From sequence record OZ556245.1: DNA of 64,000 nucleotides, one strand, 5' to 3'. This document shows, in pieces, positions 12,542 to 62,430 of this stretch. A model generated the notes under the pieces. That model had not been told where the DNA came from. It made no database searches and saw only the letters and a program-made list of their open reading frames with translations. The first letter of the stretch is position 1. Every line of letters starts with the position of its first letter. Origin of the DNA: a phage. A program made the position numbers and the translations under genes.

Positions 12542-12571
12542 ATTATACCACATCCTTGTGGTAAAGTAAAC
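12542..12571 (-). promoter_or_regulatory. T4-type early promoter overlapping the gene 39 stop codon
   Basis: Minus strand AGTTTAC - spacer - TATAAT (consensus -10). Confidence 0.6.
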
Positions 12572-53236: not shown

Positions 53237-53446
53237 TTAATTTCGCAATTTATTAAGTTCTTCATAATCAATCCAGGATTCTAGTCCTGATGGCAAATCA
53301 GATTCAATTTCCCAAAGAAGTTCTTCAATTTTCTGAAGACGATCTAATTCTTCAGCAGGAATAGTAACCATTGACGGAGTTCTTGATACGCTAATATCGT
53401 AAATCATATTTACCCCAGTTTGACCATACAATCGCCATATTTCCAT
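53237..53446 (-). CDS. Hypothetical protein
   Basis: 69-aa ORF. Confidence 0.35.
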   Translation of the reverse strand: MEIWRLYGQTGVNMIYDISVSRTPSMVTIPAEELDRLQKIEELLWEIESDLPSGLESWIDYEELNKLRN

Positions 53447-53625
53447 TTAGAAATAGACTTTTCACCATTAGAATAATAAACTTCAAGTTTAGCACGATTA
53501 TTTTTAATTTGAATAACCTTTGCTGTCATCAAAGTTCCATACCCATAATAAACTGCAACCTCATCACCTACATATACCGCGCTTCCGCGGTAGTCATGGA
53601 TATAATCAGTTCCTTCGAGCATCAT
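53410..53625 (-). CDS. Hypothetical protein
   Basis: 71-aa ORF. Confidence 0.35.
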   Translation of the reverse strand: MMLEGTDYIHDYRGSAVYVGDEVAVYYGYGTLMTAKVIQIKNNRAKLEVYYSNGEKSISKWKYGDCMVKLG

Positions 53626-54129: not shown

Positions 54130-54433
54130 TTTCTTCTCGGTTAAATCGGTGTTTGCAATGACGGCATTTATAACGAAGATTACTAGTCTGCCAATGGACT
54201 AATTGAACCTGTTCAGTACCGCATTCAGGACAATTAGGAACGCTTTTAGAAGCCCTTTCGCGACGTTCAACCATAGCCATAATGGCATCCCAAGCTGGAG
54301 GTTTAAAATCTAAATCATCGCAACCATGAATCTTTCCACACATTTCCAGATCGTCTTCTTCACCAGCCATAATAATTTTAATTAGACTGGAATTACTTGA
54401 AGCTGCAATATCTTCTAATAAGCGCTTTTTCAT
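54116..54433 (-). CDS. Hypothetical zinc-ribbon protein
   Basis: 105 aa with CPECG...CRHCKHRF. Confidence 0.4.
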
Positions 54434-55359
54434 TTCAATACCTCAATAGCATTACGTAAACCATTTGCTTTTGCATTAAGAGCTTTTAACAATTTGGTGT
54501 GTTCGGCAATCTGGGCTTCAACTTCAATTAAACGAGCATTGAGATATTCACGTTCTTCGCTCAGGTTATCAACCTTTTCTACTTTAGGTTCTTTTACAGC
54601 TGTCTTATATGTATTAGGGTTCTTCAGTTTAATTAGAATGCGTGAACTGTATAACATTGAACCATTATCTTCGGTTTCGTCATACATTTCTACTACGTCC
54701 ATGATTTTTAACATCATGCGGAGTTTATAAGACAACGAACGAATAGTTTTGTTGTGCTTATTAATTTCTCTAGAGTTCATGGTGCCGAGATTACGTGAGT
54801 AATAATAAGGAACCTGGATATTAATTAGCACTGATGAACCACCTGGCTTATGTGTTACTTCATCAGCAATAACCCAGTCCTTAACATGAACTGTATTTGT
54901 ACGGTCATCACCAGCAGTAAATAGTTTGCGAGCATGCTTAAAAAGCATATTCACTTGGGTATTGAATTGACAAGCAAATTTATCAGCAAATTTAGTTTCA
55001 GGAATGGTAGATAACCAATCAGCCAAATGGGTCTTTTTAACATCGTTAACAATAGTAAATTCAACCAAATCGGTTATAGATGTCGTAGATTTAATGAAGC
55101 TCGGCTTCATAAAGTTTTTAATGTTATCGCGAGCTACAGTAGAAGATAACATACGAGAACGTTTAAACCATTCAAGCAAATTGCCTAACGAATGAGAATA
55201 AGCGTTTTGAGTATCTTTACAGATATGATTTTCCTGGCCAACATATTGAAGGAAATCACGAAGAATATTATTGATTACTGCTCTGTGTCCGATATTATAA
55301 TTACGGTGTTTAGTAATAAGGCTGTCAAAATAATCAATATAATGTTTACGAGTTTTCAT
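54430..55359 (-). CDS. Coiled-coil paralog family member 1
   Basis: 309 aa; C-terminal heptad-rich tail; shares ...FKHARKLF... block with members 2-4. Confidence 0.45.
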   Translation of the reverse strand: MKTRKHYIDYFDSLITKHRNYNIGHRAVINNILRDFLQYVGQENHICKDTQNAYSHSLGNLLEWFKRSRMLSSTVARDNIKNFMKPSFIKSTTSITDLVEFTIVNDVKKTHLADWLSTIPETKFADKFACQFNTQVNMLFKHARKLFTAGDDRTNTVHVKDWVIADEVTHKPGGSSVLINIQVPYYYSRNLGTMNSREINKHNKTIRSLSYKLRMMLKIMDVVEMYDETEDNGSMLYSSRILIKLKNPNTYKTAVKEPKVEKVDNLSEEREYLNARLIEVEAQIAEHTKLLKALNAKANGLRNAIEVLK

Positions 55360-55411
55360 GTTCTTCTCACTTGGTTAATGATTTATACTCCGAGCCATCC
55401 TTGGCTTTAAA

Positions 55412-56413
55412 TTACTTAATTAACTGTAAAGCTTGTTCAAGACGATCCAGGCGATTAACAGATTCTTCCCAAATCCTTTTAGCTTGCTCATATTCTTTCT
55501 GCGCTTTATTAGAAATTTCTAGAACTTCTTTATAAGCTTTTTCTAATGCAATAACTTCTGGACGAATTTCTACCGGTTCAGGTGAATCGTCAAGACATTC
55601 CATTAGTTTCTCAAGGGTAGTTTCTTCTTTAGGAGTATTCACAATTTCTTCACATTTTTGTTGATAAATTTCTTTATCAGTCGGTGAGTACGCACACTTT
55701 ACTTCACGGAGACTAACTACAATTTTATATCCTTCCCAACCGCATATATTCTTAAAAGGATAAGTATGAATATTTTCTACTGTTTCCATACAAAGTAATG
55801 CGGTCTCTAACTGACGAGTTATATCGCTAGCAATTGAGAAAAATTTATTAATGTTCTTTTGATTAGCTTCTGGTGTAAAAAATTCATAATTCACAAAAAT
55901 AGCTGCTTTATTTTTATCAAGTTCATATTCTTTTATGATAATCATATCAGAAGCCCAAGGATGAATTTGACGATAATCGCCATAGCATAATTTAGAAGCT
56001 GATTTTAGAATTTGCTTTTTGAAAAGTCTGAAATTACTAATCCAACGACGAGTAAAAATATTCTCAGGGTCTTCTTTATTATTAAGATGATATGAATTAA
56101 CATCACCGAACCAATTATATCCTACTACATCTTTAGTTCGTTTAATTTCTTTCCCAAATTTACCGAGAATATCTTGGTTAACTAAATATGAAAGAAGACG
56201 AGAACCTTTGAAGGTTTCCTTAATATCATCTTTATATTCGCGACTAGAAATTTTATGAACTTCATGAATAAATTTGTTGGAAGAGACAATACTTGCATCA
56301 GTATTATTGAGCCATTGATTGATAATGGAAATAACACTATTCTGACTAGACACAGGTTTAACTTTATCATCAATAACGCTATTGAATGATTTGATATATT
56401 CGTTACGAGTCAT
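55412..56413 (-). CDS. Coiled-coil paralog family member 2
   Basis: Trimmed to the ATG (MTRNEYIK...) downstream of the promoter at 56442-56471; block FTRRWISNFRLFKKQILKSASKL. Confidence 0.45.
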   Translation of the reverse strand: MTRNEYIKSFNSVIDDKVKPVSSQNSVISIINQWLNNTDASIVSSNKFIHEVHKISSREYKDDIKETFKGSRLLSYLVNQDILGKFGKEIKRTKDVVGYNWFGDVNSYHLNNKEDPENIFTRRWISNFRLFKKQILKSASKLCYGDYRQIHPWASDMIIIKEYELDKNKAAIFVNYEFFTPEANQKNINKFFSIASDITRQLETALLCMETVENIHTYPFKNICGWEGYKIVVSLREVKCAYSPTDKEIYQQKCEEIVNTPKEETTLEKLMECLDDSPEPVEIRPEVIALEKAYKEVLEISNKAQKEYEQAKRIWEESVNRLDRLEQALQLIK

Positions 56414-56441
56414 ATTAATCTCCTCAGTAGAAAGTAAGAAC

Positions 56442-56471
56442 ATTATACCACATCCTTGTGGCAAAGTAAAC
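56442..56471 (-). promoter_or_regulatory. T4-type early promoter overlapping the upstream stop codon
   Basis: Near-identical to the promoter at 12542-12571 (attataccacatccttgtggNaaagtaaact). Confidence 0.55.
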
Positions 56472-57493
56472 TAGTTTAGTGCATTTAGTGCATTGTTCAG
56501 TTTAGAACGTTGCTTCGTAAGATTTTTGACTTTTTCTTGAGCTTTTTCTAGCATCTTTTCAGCTTCTAACACTTCATTAGTTGCTTTAACGAGTTCATCA
56601 TCTACTGCCTTGATAGACTTCTCAATCGCATCCGCATGCCATTTTTCAACAGGTTTAAGACTCGGATTTTCAACAGGAAGAAAATTCACTTTATTGAATT
56701 TCCATGCATCTTTATTACTTGAACTATACATCCAAAATTTAGGATCGTTTGATGAGTAATTGGATAAATTTAAGTTATCTTGCACTTCCTGCTTTTTCTC
56801 TTGTGGGACTTCGTCCTTTCTCAAAAAATCGTATTTAAATGAAACGATCATATCAAGTTCATACGTTGTTGTATGTTCCCAATTTCGCTCAAAATGAGGT
56901 AAAATCTTAGACTGAACAGCGGCAACAACATCCATATACTTAAATGCTTCTGTCAACTGTGATTTAAGGCATTCGCAAATTGAAAGAGAATTTTTTGTAT
57001 TAGGTTTAAAGCTAATTCGCGCAGTTCTGTTATTTTCTTTTAATGGTCTTACTTCCATCTGAAGAGTATAATCATCAAATTTCAGATTCTTTAAGTTAAT
57101 ATCAGAACCTTTTAATCGACTCGCAATTGATAAAATTTGTTTTAATTGTTTACGGAATAGAGCAATAAATCTCCATTCAATACGATAATGATTTGGATTG
57201 AAAAATCCAGATGATAAATCGACCTTACTTTGACCAACGCCTTGAACAAATAGAGGATTTTTATAATCAATAGTTTTACAGAAATCGGTGAGCTGCTCAC
57301 GAGCAGTCATTTGTGTAATATATCCTGCTTGGTTAAAATTGCGCACCCATTCACTGCTGTTCAGATGTTTAAAGGCATGAATGGAACAATTAACTTTACC
57401 AAGGTCTAAATTATTTTCACACAAAAACGTCATAGCATCACGAGTATAGCTGGCATTACGAACCATATCTTCAATTTGAGAACGAGTTTTCAT
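56471..57493 (-). CDS. Coiled-coil paralog family member 3
   Basis: 340 aa; block YRIEWRFIALFRKQLKQILSIASRL; C-terminal coiled coil. Confidence 0.45.
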   Translation of the reverse strand: MKTRSQIEDMVRNASYTRDAMTFLCENNLDLGKVNCSIHAFKHLNSSEWVRNFNQAGYITQMTAREQLTDFCKTIDYKNPLFVQGVGQSKVDLSSGFFNPNHYRIEWRFIALFRKQLKQILSIASRLKGSDINLKNLKFDDYTLQMEVRPLKENNRTARISFKPNTKNSLSICECLKSQLTEAFKYMDVVAAVQSKILPHFERNWEHTTTYELDMIVSFKYDFLRKDEVPQEKKQEVQDNLNLSNYSSNDPKFWMYSSSNKDAWKFNKVNFLPVENPSLKPVEKWHADAIEKSIKAVDDELVKATNEVLEAEKMLEKAQEKVKNLTKQRSKLNNALNALN

Positions 57494-57501
57494 GGTGTTC
57501 C

Positions 57502-58392
57502 TTAAGATTTAAGTAAATCGACAATTTTAATTAACTTTTCACGCTCAGATTTAGCTTTACTACTCAGTCCAGATAGTCTGAAAATTTCATCATCATATTG
57601 TTGAATAGAAATATTCAGCTCTTCAATTTGCTTATTAAAATAATCAATTTGTTCAGAATGTTTTTCGTTACTACGAACTGGTACAGGTTTCGTAGGCAAT
57701 GTAGTTGAACTGGATTCATCCGGGCGGTAAATTAAAATACAACTTGAACCAATAGGGCATTTTGCACCAGATGAATATTCTAATGTTCCAGATTCTTTTA
57801 AAACTTCAAAAGCTAAACAGAGATGATGCCCCATATTAATATAATCTGTAGAGCGAGCTCTGATGTAATAATCATCGCCACGAATACTAAATTTAAAGCA
57901 TTTAAGGTCTTCTGTATTATTGGTCTTAAAAATCATTTGTTTATCTAGACCTTTAGCTAATCGAGCGCCTAATGCTAATAATCGTCTTTGATTTTCCCAC
58001 AAATCCGCAATCATTTGATCGAATGATAATTTTGGCATCAGTCGACCATAAAGGTCATATCCTTTATTATAATTACGAAGGATTTCATTCGCGTTAATAC
58101 GAGACAATGCTCCAATTTTATTAAGGGCTTTCATAATGCGATTAGATAAACTCATTCCAGATCCGTTTGTTCGCTGCAAATGTTTTTCTAATCCAAATCC
58201 AATATCAACTTTAAACTTATCTAAAATTTCTGCATGAACATCTCTGTCGATAACATTCAAATCCAAAGTTGAGTTAAATCTATGAAAAAATTTATCTGGC
58301 TCTGCACTGCGAAATACAGTCCATTCATTCATCATTTTTTTATTAACTAAAGATTTAATTACTGCATTGACATTATTAATTACTACTGACAT
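57502..58392 (-). CDS. Coiled-coil paralog family member 4
   Basis: ORF-track start is TTG; ATG at 58392 with RBS GAGG; block LWENQRRLLALGARLAKG. Confidence 0.4.
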   Translation of the reverse strand: MSVVINNVNAVIKSLVNKKMMNEWTVFRSAEPDKFFHRFNSTLDLNVIDRDVHAEILDKFKVDIGFGLEKHLQRTNGSGMSLSNRIMKALNKIGALSRINANEILRNYNKGYDLYGRLMPKLSFDQMIADLWENQRRLLALGARLAKGLDKQMIFKTNNTEDLKCFKFSIRGDDYYIRARSTDYINMGHHLCLAFEVLKESGTLEYSSGAKCPIGSSCILIYRPDESSSTTLPTKPVPVRSNEKHSEQIDYFNKQIEELNISIQQYDDEIFRLSGLSSKAKSEREKLIKIVDLLKS

Positions 58393-58399
58393 ATTTTCC

Positions 58400-58807
58400 T
58401 CACTCAATTTCAATTTTACTAAATATACAGAATAAGATGGAACAGACTATATAAGCACCACACACAGATTGAACTAATACCATTCCAAAGAACCAAACAA
58501 TATTATCAAACAATGTCTGTTTTACGTCGAAAGGACGTAAACTTACAGTAATATTATCACCTTTTTCTATTGAAGAATACATCTCTGGGGAAATATATTC
58601 ACTAAATCTATAACCGTCTTTTAGTTCATATACGGCAATAAACGATAAACTAGACCCTTTTCCTTGTGTTCCTGTAATGGTATTAACTACAGTAACATCA
58701 TAATCTTTATAATGCATATAATCATTAATTGCGTAATAACCATATGCAATTACTACACATAAACAACATATCAATAAATTCAATCTTTTAATTATCAACT
58801 GTTTCAT
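58400..58807 (-). CDS. Membrane protein
   Basis: 135 aa with N- and C-terminal hydrophobic helices. Confidence 0.4.
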   Translation of the reverse strand: MKQLIIKRLNLLICCLCVVIAYGYYAINDYMHYKDYDVTVVNTITGTQGKGSSLSFIAVYELKDGYRFSEYISPEMYSSIEKGDNITVSLRPFDVKQTLFDNIVWFFGMVLVQSVCGAYIVCSILFCIFSKIEIE

Positions 58808-58862
58808 AATAATCTCAATTAAAAGGGCTTAGAACCATTATACCATCCTTGGTATAAAGCGG

Positions 58863-59390
58863 TTATGCGAGTACCGTCTTTAACCGTTCTTCAAACTTCC
58901 GAAGAGTATTTTGGCGTTCAGCTCTTTGCTTTTTGTAAGTTTCAATACGCTCTGAAATGAGAGAGTATCGTTCATTTACTGATTCTTTCATAAAATCAGG
59001 AATTTCACGAGAAGCTTTAATCTCGTCAAATTTATCAATAACAGCCTGCTCTTCAGCAATTAAGTTATCATACATTAAAATATCTTTCTTGATGAACTCA
59101 ATATCTTCTTGAGTTACACGAGATAATTTAGATGCTTTATCCTTTTTGTACTGTTCGTTAGTATCACGAGACCAGTGTAATGTACGATTTTTATTCGTAT
59201 TTTTGTAAATTTCTACAATACCGATCTCATCGATAATAACGATCCAATTCCAACGGGATTTGTAAATTTGTCCTCCATCAACAGTGATTTCACCTCCAAT
59301 TGAGATGTCATTAAAGAACTTGCTTTGCGCTTCAGATTTAAATTTACCATCGTTGTAATTTACCAAGTTGAAAATATCTTTAGCGTTCAT
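58863..59390 (-). CDS. Hypothetical protein with C-terminal coiled coil
   Basis: 175 aa; first gene after the early promoter at 59419-59448. Confidence 0.4.
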   Translation of the reverse strand: MNAKDIFNLVNYNDGKFKSEAQSKFFNDISIGGEITVDGGQIYKSRWNWIVIIDEIGIVEIYKNTNKNRTLHWSRDTNEQYKKDKASKLSRVTQEDIEFIKKDILMYDNLIAEEQAVIDKFDEIKASREIPDFMKESVNERYSLISERIETYKKQRAERQNTLRKFEERLKTVLA

Positions 59391-59854: not shown

Positions 59855-60823
59855 TTATTTCAGAAGAGTAACCTCAGCAATTTCTTCCCAACCGTTTTTG
59901 TCGGTCATAATAAAGTCAGCAAGATAAAGAGCAGTACGCAGTGAAACATTGCGTAAACGATTAACATTAACTTTCATCCATGATAATGCTTTATAAGTTT
60001 CTTCATCAGAAAGACCGCGCTTTTGCATCATGTCAGTTGAAAGAATAACATCTTCAACCCTGACCATAATTTCTTCATTAGTGTGAACACCCAAATCTAA
60101 ATAAACCGAGCGGGACACTAATGCTTGTAAATGTGGAGCAAGTTTAGTACCACGGTCTAATTCGCGGTCAATGTCAACGTTTGTGATAAAAACAATCGTT
60201 CCTTTAAATTCAAACTCACGCTCAATGCCTTTTTCTTCTAAGTAAGAAGACGCAGTGCTCCAGCAGACTTTACGGGTCTCTCCAGTGTCCAGAGCGGCTT
60301 TTAGAAGATTAAGAATATCCATATCAGAGAAAACATCCACATCATCAATCAAAAGGACAGAATTCTCTTCACGATTATTCCAAAGCTGCTCATAAAGACC
60401 AATACCAGAGATTTTACCATTAATGCTTTTATATTCAATGTATCCAATATCATTTGCTTTATTCAAAGCTTTATCTAAAGAATACGTTTTACCAATACCT
60501 GCTGCGCCAGAGATAATTAATGAACGAATATTTCCATTAATAATACCATTCGTCATCATTCCCATAACATTAAATCTTTTATTAATGCGGGTTTTCATAT
60601 CTTCATATGATTCTTTAACTTCTTCAACTTTTACACCATCATATGAAATATCTGATTTGTAAACCCAAACACCGCGACGCTTACCGTCAATTTCAACAAA
60701 AACTTTACCATCTCCTTGTGCATCTACCGGAGCATTATCTGGGAACCATTCGCCTAAGAGCTCAAAAGTTCCAGAGATTTCTTTACCGAAGTAGATACCC
60801 TTATTGATAGTTACAGTTTTCAT
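59855..60823 (-). CDS. P-loop NTPase (AAA-like ATPase)
   Basis: ORF-track start is GTG; ATG at 60823 with RBS GGAGAA; Walker A ISGAAGIGKTYS, Walker B VLLIDDVD. Confidence 0.5.
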   Translation of the reverse strand: MKTVTINKGIYFGKEISGTFELLGEWFPDNAPVDAQGDGKVFVEIDGKRRGVWVYKSDISYDGVKVEEVKESYEDMKTRINKRFNVMGMMTNGIINGNIRSLIISGAAGIGKTYSLDKALNKANDIGYIEYKSINGKISGIGLYEQLWNNREENSVLLIDDVDVFSDMDILNLLKAALDTGETRKVCWSTASSYLEEKGIEREFEFKGTIVFITNVDIDRELDRGTKLAPHLQALVSRSVYLDLGVHTNEEIMVRVEDVILSTDMMQKRGLSDEETYKALSWMKVNVNRLRNVSLRTALYLADFIMTDKNGWEEIAEVTLLK

Positions 60824-60859
60824 TTTATTCTCCAATTTCACATTTGTTTTGATAGGGTA

Positions 60860-61416: not shown

Positions 61417-62430
61417 TCATTTATAATAACTTCGATGGTTTTCAAGATAAACCCTCTCAAGGAAGTCATCCCAAAAACACATGTCTACTTTTTGCTGCAT
61501 ACCGTTCTTAGAAGCTTCAATGGATGCTGCTTCTACTTGATCGACCACATCTTCCAAAAACTCTTGAACAGTTTTAAATGGATGTTTACCCAACTTCACG
61601 TCGAGAATAAATGGAGCGTCTTGAAGTGGATAGACTAAGTCACCAGTTTTGTAAATTTCCAATAGTTGGAGTCCACCACGGCAAGCATGACTCAGAGCTT
61701 TCCAGTCAATGCCCTCATTAGCTTCGGCCTTACGAGCGCGTTCGCCGTATTCAGCATCAAGTTTATTCAAAGATTGCTTAAGCTCGATAAGAGAAAGCGT
61801 TGTTTGATATTTACGACCCAACACGGTGTAGAACGTTTGTGGGCCTGTTTTCTCATGATTATGGAATACCCATTCACAGAATTCGTTCTCTGGAAGACGA
61901 TGCTTAATATCTTCAACTTTAGTTCGACGCTGCTTAATGGAACCGTCTTCTTGGTAATCAACCCATTGCTCAGGGATTTGATTAACTACTTTCAATACAT
62001 CACGTAATGCGGCCAAACGAGAACCCTTAACACCGTATTTAGAAGCTTGCTTGCGAACATATCCTAAATAGGATTTCATGTTAGTCGTATAAAAACGAGA
62101 ACGATTGTCTTGAATAAACTTCCATACATCAGGCAAATCAGATTTAACCACTAGTTCCGGTGGAGTGTGGAGCATATCCAATGCTACAGTTTCACCATCT
62201 GCAGCTAATTTAAAGAAATACTTAAGACTATATAGTTCATGGTCAATATCATCTTTAGTGTTTTTAGATGATGTGTTGTTAGTGTTTTTACTCATATGCT
62301 CTTTAACATTTCCGATAAGAATATCGCGAGCAGGAGGAACAAAGATTTCTTTAAAATCTACATCAGATTCTGGAGTAGAAGTTCCATAAAGATGACTACC
62401 AAAATAGCTTTTCATTACTGTTTTCATCAT
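61417..62430 (-). CDS. Putative Pol-beta-superfamily nucleotidyltransferase-like protein
   Basis: 337 aa; N-terminal YFGSHLYGTSTPESDVDF matches the G[SG]-x9-D-x-D NTase signature; coupled ATGA to the upstream membrane-protein gene. Confidence 0.4.
   Translation of the reverse strand: MMKTVMKSYFGSHLYGTSTPESDVDFKEIFVPPARDILIGNVKEHMSKNTNNTSSKNTKDDIDHELYSLKYFFKLAADGETVALDMLHTPPELVVKSDLPDVWKFIQDNRSRFYTTNMKSYLGYVRKQASKYGVKGSRLAALRDVLKVVNQIPEQWVDYQEDGSIKQRRTKVEDIKHRLPENEFCEWVFHNHEKTGPQTFYTVLGRKYQTTLSLIELKQSLNKLDAEYGERARKAEANEGIDWKALSHACRGGLQLLEIYKTGDLVYPLQDAPFILDVKLGKHPFKTVQEFLEDVVDQVEAASIEASKNGMQQKVDMCFWDDFLERVYLENHRSYYK

Follow-up and report, generated by a model that had tools for sequence, protein, structure and literature searches.

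Why should a T4-like phage carry, side by side, four similarly sized genes that the annotated record of T4 itself labels hypothetical throughout? T4 is the best-studied of phages, and about half of its genes are without known function. We examined this question in a 64,000-nucleotide stretch of phage DNA (sequence record OZ556245.1; hereafter the window, to whose positions all coordinates refer). The genome is that of a Tequatrovirus (T4-like phage): over the 5.5 kb spanning the array, identity is 99% to sequenced Tequatrovirus phages and ~84–97% to T4-group genomes, and the flanking open reading frames (ORFs) encode T4 endonuclease VII and the NrdC glutaredoxin. An initial annotation of this DNA had pointed to four consecutive minus-strand genes of about 296–340 amino acids (aa). 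Their coordinates and lengths were confirmed, and comparison with the annotated T4 record identified them by identity and synteny as the orthologues of T4 nrdC.3 (gene A; 54430..55359, 309 aa), nrdC.4 (gene B; 55412..56413, 333 aa), nrdC.5 (gene C; 56471..57493, 340 aa) and nrdC.6 (gene D; 57502..58392, 296 aa), all on the minus strand; beyond nrdC.6 the order continues with nrdC.7, nrdC.8 (F), nrdC.9, nrdC.10 and nrdC.11. The four are not new genes but known genes of T4, one with a published anti-defence phenotype. The answer towards which we cautiously lean is that the array encodes modular anti-defence early proteins that would have arisen from one ancestral gene and would act as oligomeric, stoichiometric binders.

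The connection to defence comes from nrdC.5. T4 nrdC.5, described as an early gene, counteracts Dsr1 (Srikant et al. 2022, eLife; PMC9391042): a multi-kilobase deletion phage regained infection of MG1655 carrying dsr1 when plasmid-borne T4 nrdC.5 alone was supplied, and infection was also regained on deletion of host dsr1 (PMC9391042). Dsr1 is a SIR2-domain protein that has been suggested to block phage replication via disrupted NAD+ levels (PMC9391042), and its TPR sensor recognizes the phage major capsid protein (2026 preprint, PMC12803255); DSR1 was still called poorly characterized in a 2026 paper. In the searchable literature, the T4 nrdC.5 result was the only relevant experiment that we found, and no mechanism for nrdC.5 was found there. 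Gene C is 91% identical to T4 NrdC.5 over residues 1–331, lies in the same place between nrdC.4 and nrdC.6 and likewise belongs to DUF7235, differing in its last ~9 residues and at some internal positions; as an orthologue, it would be expected to have the same anti-Dsr1 activity. Because the related T4 nrdC.5 has been reported to disarm Dsr1, nrdC.3, nrdC.4 and nrdC.6 are good anti-defence candidates as well.

The initial annotation had presented the four genes as a paralogous family. Alignment supported a graded picture instead, in which the A–B relationship is certain, C needs profile methods to be recognized and D is weak but consistent; four obvious paralogues could not be accepted. A and B matched each other in BLASTP (E=6e-8, 26% identity over 226 residues), a hidden Markov model (HMM) of the B family picked up A at E=1.3e-17, and both fall in phrog_1435 and Pfam Phage_T4_Y04OP, making them, as judged from sequence, unambiguous paralogues. 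C was undetected by BLASTP with A or B, and its HMMER match to them (E=0.25) was not significant. We built a C profile enriched with the divergent C-type proteins P0225, P0228 and P0235, retrieved by an exhaustive HMMER search, and with the RB69 and Bp7 versions; a search of viral contigs with C contributed nothing to this diversity, all the loci that it retrieved being T4-like and nearly identical. Profile–profile comparison in hhalign linked AB to C at P=9.5e-6, improving with this enriched profile to 1.8e-6, with 90% probability across 147 collinear columns. When the AB profile was ranked against 66 real-sized proteins of the window as single sequences, C came third behind B and A with a 158-column alignment, whereas the best background match covered only 16 columns. 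Weak matches of B and of C-family proteins also converged on phrog_26858. C thus appears to be a distant homologue of A and B, at the profile level only.

D is where the claim of a single family is most exposed. No link from D to A, B or C reached significance, whether by BLASTP, by HMMER, by ranking single sequences with hhalign or by cross-hits among PHROGs, and hhalign probabilities for D were only 1–7%. Such results suit the alternative that the array is not one family at all: nrdC.3 and nrdC.4, perhaps with nrdC.5, would be related, and nrdC.6 would be an unrelated protein that resembles them by chance in size and helical tail, a make-up often seen in small phage proteins, and through motifs defined post hoc. 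Databases are in keeping with it, as they split A–D over three separate families, none with an assigned function, with full-length profile membership in each case. A and B belong to phrog_1435 (E=7e-116 and 1e-165) and to PF26897 (Phage_T4_Y04OP), which was present in all 63 homologues of B; C belongs to phrog_2351 (E=6e-167) and PF23882 (DUF7235; E=4.7e-126 with residues 1–340 covered, against a cut-off of 30 bits); and D belongs to phrog_2257 (E=4e-151) and PF26899 (Phage_T4_Y05B), present in all 105 homologues of D. We nevertheless consider the unrelated origin of nrdC.6 unlikely. Comparison of the D and C profiles gave P=0.006, with both conserved blocks spanned; the corresponding values for D with AB and with the nrdC.3 subfamily were 0.04 and 0.005. 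Against block-shuffled, composition-matched decoys, D beat 30/30 when compared with AB (score 21.8; decoys 15.7±2.0) and 30/30 when compared with C (24.5; decoys 16.1±2.3), although in a third test, Afam against D, the score was reached by 4/30 decoys. The two blocks of D fell in the same register in three independent pairwise alignments, which were collinear and transitively consistent, and RB69 nrdC.6, whose linker resembles the B-family consensus, was matched by the AB HMM (E=5e-4, with four sequences in the database). D also adjoins the other three genes. The balance of these comparisons makes it likely that D belongs with A, B and C, its homology to them being probable rather than proven.

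The shared internal block that had first suggested a family proved to be real and corresponds to a structural element. In the AlphaFold models of both C and D it forms a long amphipathic helix (residues 100–126 in C and 124–145 in D) ahead of a beta-sheet, and the elements that follow are the same in the two models: a helix between two beta-hairpins, then a disordered linker and finally a long helix at the C-terminus. This identical order of secondary-structure elements is a further point against an unrelated nrdC.6. The D model was usable, with a predicted local distance difference test (pLDDT) score of 78 and a predicted template modelling (pTM) score of 0.65, and the C model, built on a shallow alignment, was poor (pLDDT 55). 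A second conserved block, overlooked in the initial annotation, lies ~40–70 residues upstream of the first in all four proteins (FKRSRMLSSTVARDNIKNF in A, FKGSRLLSYLVNQDILGKF in B, FNQAGYITQMTAREQLTDF in C and LNKIGALSRINANEILRNY in D). Its 19-residue pattern, F/L-K/N-x-x-G/R-x-h-S/T...A-x-E/D-x-L-x-x-F/Y, matched A, B, C and D alone among 187 window ORFs, at equivalent positions, and the terminal motif L..[AI][LIV].[LVAI][LI][KN] was present four times in the 25,670 residues of the ORFs, always at the very end of one of the four proteins A–D; as both patterns were derived post hoc from these very proteins, their confinement to the array is corroboration and not an independent test. On inspection of the aligned blocks, the positions conserved across paralogues appeared mostly hydrophobic or structural.

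The four proteins had also been said to end in heptad-rich, probably coiled-coil tails. In each of A–D, and in the nrdC.8 product F, the best 35-residue heptad window fell within ~60 residues of the C-terminus, which for A–D is in keeping with heptad periodicity in a long, proline-free C-terminal helix. Compared with shuffled sequences, the signal was significant in A (z=3.1), C (z=4.5) and D (z=3.6), modest in F (z=2.3) and weak in B (z=1.2). In A, the heptad-rich helix covers residues ~256–309 and ends LRNAIEVLK (54430..54591, minus strand); in C it covers residues ~279–340, with an AlphaFold helix at 281–339, and ends LNNALNALN (56471..56656, minus strand); in D the model has two helices, residues 243–272 and 278–295 (pLDDT 70–91), ending LIKIVDLLKS (57502..57663, minus strand). 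A similar tail had been attributed to the 175-aa nrdC.8 product (58863..59390, minus strand). Its C-terminus is indeed helical and modestly heptad-like, but the terminal motif is absent and no homology to A–D was detectable, and we rejected nrdC.8 as a fifth member of the family on both counts. Two further proteins bear nrdC.5-like tails on unrelated sequence: in P0230, from an 803-bp metagenome contig (L009), the last 53 residues of nrdC.5 are joined to an unrelated N-terminal sequence, and P0236 has a tail match of 81% over 32 residues with its N-terminal two-thirds unrelated. We did not use the pair as evidence of a mobile tail module, as the P0230 contig is T4-like only from the tail onward and may be an assembly chimera; the two are either genuine exchanges of the tail module or products of misassembly.

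Conservation along the proteins was uneven, and the pattern depends on which comparison is made. The initial annotation had described diverging N-terminal halves ahead of a conserved tail, which holds between paralogues. Within families it is only partly right: there the extreme N-terminus and the central core vary and the second block is conserved. When orthologues at greater distance were compared, conservation was highest in the second block (59% identity for D), the block helix (74%) and the tail (65%) and lowest in the first 45–80 residues (19%) and the alpha/beta core (33%), which places the evolutionary hot spot within families in the central core, as far as these alignments indicate. 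The nrdC.3 of the window illustrates this. It is 60% identical to T4 nrdC.3 overall, with both ends at ~85% and the middle at ~35–40%, and 76% identical to the nrdC.3 of RB69 (Mosigvirus), making it an RB69-like allele; conserved ends around a divergent middle suggest cross-genus exchange of the central module. RB69 nrdC.6 similarly keeps the block region and tail of D around a core that could not be aligned. The neighbouring nrdC.2 is itself unusually variable, at 64–87% identity.

Across four close relatives, the ratio of non-synonymous to synonymous substitution rates (dN/dS) was 0.12–0.27 for the array genes, 3–10x that of their neighbours (0.01–0.06 for gene 49, nrdC, nrdC.8, nrdC.9, nrdC.10 and nrdC.11), indicating relaxed or locally diversifying constraint and not gene-wide positive selection. 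Array members also carry frequent lesions. The T4 reference nrdC.6 (NC_000866; L001 8000–8130) and the RB69 reference nrdC.5 (L011 11020–11400) each have a frameshift just before the C-terminal helix, with the ancestral tail intact in another frame, attributable either to passage in the laboratory or to a mistake in old sequencing; nrdC.4 is split or truncated in one phage (L005 8084–8620); and nrdC.6 of Shigella phage Sf25 (P0120) contains an 82-residue internal tandem duplication. In P0056, a natural deletion that removed nrdC.4 has fused nrdC.5, at residue ~272, to nrdC.3, at residue ~137. We considered whether this fusion arose by recombination between paralogues at homologous positions and rejected that origin in favour of an illegitimate deletion; since the junction joins non-equivalent positions, it says nothing on homology.

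Array membership varies from four genes to none among T4-like genera. T4 and the window phage (Tequatrovirus) have all four; RB69 (Mosigvirus) has three, nrdC.3, nrdC.5 and nrdC.6, and is without nrdC.4; Bp7 (Dhakavirus) has three, nrdC.4, an nrdC.5-like gene and nrdC.6, and is without nrdC.3; a metagenomic relative (L010) has three, of the Y04OP, DUF7235 and Y05B types; Acinetobacter phage Acj9 has one, Acj9p122; and RB49 (Krischvirus) has none at this locus. Acj9p122, of 325 aa, is flanked by gene 49 and nrdC.10, which is the syntenic location, and we equated it, by protein length alone, with a 325-aa Acj9 match of the D model (E=7e-5). More broadly, the D model matched full-length proteins of 304–346 aa from many T4-like genera (E=1e-7 to 1e-3), in T4-like phages of Acinetobacter, Enterobacter, Pectobacterium, Klebsiella, Yersinia and Serratia. 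A protein of Serratia phage CBH8 was common to the matches of both models and was the best match of the C model, whose low quality (pLDDT 55) makes its Foldseek matches weak corroboration only. A more ambitious reading, which we offer tentatively and hold to be appreciably less probable than the anti-defence role of the array itself, is that A–D and the structurally similar 300–350-aa proteins encoded at this locus in T4-like phages that infect Acinetobacter, Klebsiella, Serratia, Pectobacterium and Yersinia constitute a single, hitherto unrecognized superfamily of modular immune antagonists, in which a conserved scaffold and oligomerizing tail would bear a rapidly swapped central recognition core, each paralogue disabling a different host sensor. 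Were this true, Dsr1 would be the first example, other repeat-type sensors would be plausible targets, and the phage side would possess a repertoire mirroring the diverse pattern-recognition receptors of bacteria.

The same distribution bears on a different idea, that the tails join the paralogues in one mixed coiled-coil complex, a hetero-oligomeric machine that might also include the products of nrdC.10 and nrdC.11. The terminal motif is common to the tails of all paralogues, T4, RB69, Bp7, L010 and Acj9 all carry nrdC.10 and nrdC.11 alongside the array, and in RB49 both the array and nrdC.10 are absent at this locus, where only a shorter nrdC.11 is kept. We think this arrangement improbable, more so than any other alternative considered here, because plasmid-borne nrdC.5 by itself rescued the multi-kilobase deletion phage, because the sets of members differ between RB69 and Bp7, and because single members are frameshifted in viable phages, which an obligate complex would not tolerate.

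We propose instead that nrdC.3–nrdC.6 are tandem accessory genes of single ancestry whose products, of 300–340 residues, would follow one plan. A helical N-terminal region bearing the second block would lead into the block helix, which ends A-(S/R)-(K/R)-L-x-x-G-x-D; a small, fastest-changing alpha/beta core would follow, then a disordered linker and a C-terminal helix of 50–60 residues ending L-x-x-A-h-x-h-L-K. Their most likely role would be in host range and anti-defence. Each paralogue may be a non-enzymatic, stoichiometric binder that acts at an early stage of infection to neutralize a different immunity protein of the host, with the conserved tail providing oligomerization, hence avidity, or a common docking surface, and the variable core and N-terminus conferring target specificity. 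For nrdC.5, the proposal would entail direct binding, most simply to the capsid-recognizing TPR sensor of Dsr1. We infer three steps here: that binding is direct, that the tail oligomerizes and that nrdC.3, nrdC.4 and nrdC.6 likewise act against host defences. Searches of Pfam, NCBIfam, PADLOC and PDB sequences returned no significant match of A–D to any enzyme or defence family or to a relative of solved structure, which is compatible with a binder and no proof of one.

The suggestion that these are arms-race factors is largely supported by the nrdC.5–Dsr1 relationship, the range of copy number from four to zero, the mosaic cores, the raised dN/dS and the lesions; positive selection was not demonstrated. 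That last result is one of several that weigh against our proposal: gene-wide positive selection was not found in the array genes among the four close relatives (dN/dS <0.3). In addition, a phenotype is known for one of the four members, by genetic complementation, and the weak heptad signal of B, the marginal statistics of D, the post hoc origin of the motifs and the poor C model all count on the same side. So does the composition of the proteins, since A, C and D are basic (isoelectric point, 9.0–9.5), with central domains of net charge +4 to +7, a property that would suit nucleic-acid binding or host takeover equally well.

Basic charge is the starting point for an alternative in which the array encodes host-takeover factors, that is, basic, oligomeric early proteins whose partners would be nucleic acid or host machinery, for instance the nucleoid, transcription or RNA metabolism. 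Their effect on Dsr1 would be indirect, for example by way of NAD metabolism or of when, and in what amount, the capsid trigger appears. The early promoter of nrdC.4 and the want of a published mechanism for nrdC.5 are consistent with such a role. So is a weak resemblance of nrdC.3 residues 30–86 to the N-terminal, DNA-binding SAM-like (core-binding) domain of tyrosine recombinases, although those matches (NCBIfam E=1e-3, Pfam E=0.08) were far below curated cut-offs. The array genes are, however, dispensable on laboratory hosts and have been lost with viability retained in evolved and natural phages (PMC9391042); RB49 manages without the array; the one phenotype on record concerns a single defence system; and variable copy number with mosaic cores suits the pursuit of changing targets better than housekeeping takeover. 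We regard host takeover as unlikely, and retain the binding of distinct immunity proteins as the preferred account of the array.

The initial annotation had assigned B an early promoter of its own, which we confirmed: a T4-type sequence, GTTTAC-N18-TATAAT with TG directly upstream of the -10 element, lies at 56442..56471 on the minus strand, ahead of B and A. Sites of this type numbered 5 in the window against 0.14 expected. The promoter spacer contains a hairpin, CCACA-AGGA-TGTGG (CCACAAGGATGTGG), that also scores as terminator-like, and a second cassette 44 kb away (12542–12571, minus strand) is identical at 29/30 positions (GTTTACTTT(G/A)CCACAAGGATGTGGTATAAT) and has the same kind of spacer hairpin. 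Related hairpins (CCAAGGATGG) were seen upstream of nrdC.3 (55360–55411) and nrdC.7 (58808–58862). PeSL cassettes, for which the T4/PST promoter consensus is TTTACW-N17-TAYWAT, have been implicated in modular shuffling of the hyperplastic regions of T4-like phages (Arbiol 2010; Comeau 2014; PMC4122927). The combination of a T4-type early promoter and a stem-loop, repeated in the window, matches these cassettes, and the nrdC.4 promoter fits the PeSL consensus; its hairpin lies inside the promoter spacer, unlike PeSL elements, and not clearly upstream of the promoter. The sites at 56442–56471 and 12542–12571 are thus PeSL-type composite cassettes that could mediate recombination. As nrdC.5 and nrdC.6 begin only 7–8 nucleotides from their upstream genes, co-transcription with nrdC.7 and nrdC.8 is probable; promoter-like sites precede both of the latter genes. 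The layout GCTTTA-12 nt-TATAAT upstream of nrdC.7 (58837–58860, minus strand) we take to resemble a MotA-box middle promoter rather than an early one.

The nrdC.7 orthologue (58400..58807, minus strand, 135 aa), directly upstream of D and C, is a predicted membrane protein and not a member of the A–D family; nrdC.10 (59855–60841) resembles AAA/STAND-like NTPases in sub-threshold Pfam matches; and nrdC.11 (61417–62430) matches RlaP-type nucleotidyltransferases (E=3e-11). Between 49.2 and nrdC, a 71-aa ORF (53410–53625, minus strand) is 100% conserved in three related loci and is without a counterpart in the T4 reference, where 49.3 occupies that place. Many GenBank phage records call nrdC.1 to nrdC.9 'thioredoxin', a label apparently propagated from the locus name; we found no thioredoxin signature in A–D.

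These results turn three 'hypothetical proteins', nrdC.3, nrdC.4 and nrdC.6, into concrete and easily testable anti-defence candidates, correct a widespread 'thioredoxin' mis-annotation, and provide an architecture in which the variable core may account for specificity and the tail for the function common to all members. We found no earlier description of the unification of the three database families, the second block, the terminal motif, the variable-core pattern or the extension to other genera. Among known anti-defence systems, a possible parallel in mode of action is DSAD1 of phage SPbeta, which blocks a defence-associated sirtuin and is reported to inhibit activation of DSR2, a SIR2 NADase. 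By analogy, nrdC.5 may act in a comparable way on Dsr1; the array proteins had no DSAD1-like similarity in sequence or fold. The T4 anti-defence genes tifA, dmd, adfA/61.2 and ipI–III are likewise non-essential, host-strain-specific, located in variable regions and readily deleted (PMC9391042), but they encode small single-domain proteins not detectably related to those of the array and form no four-member array with a shared tail. Pfam keeps PF26897, PF23882 and PF26899 as three families, and PHROGs keeps 1435, 2351 and 2257; here, Y04OP is joined with DUF7235 and, tentatively, with Y05B, a case for merging the three.

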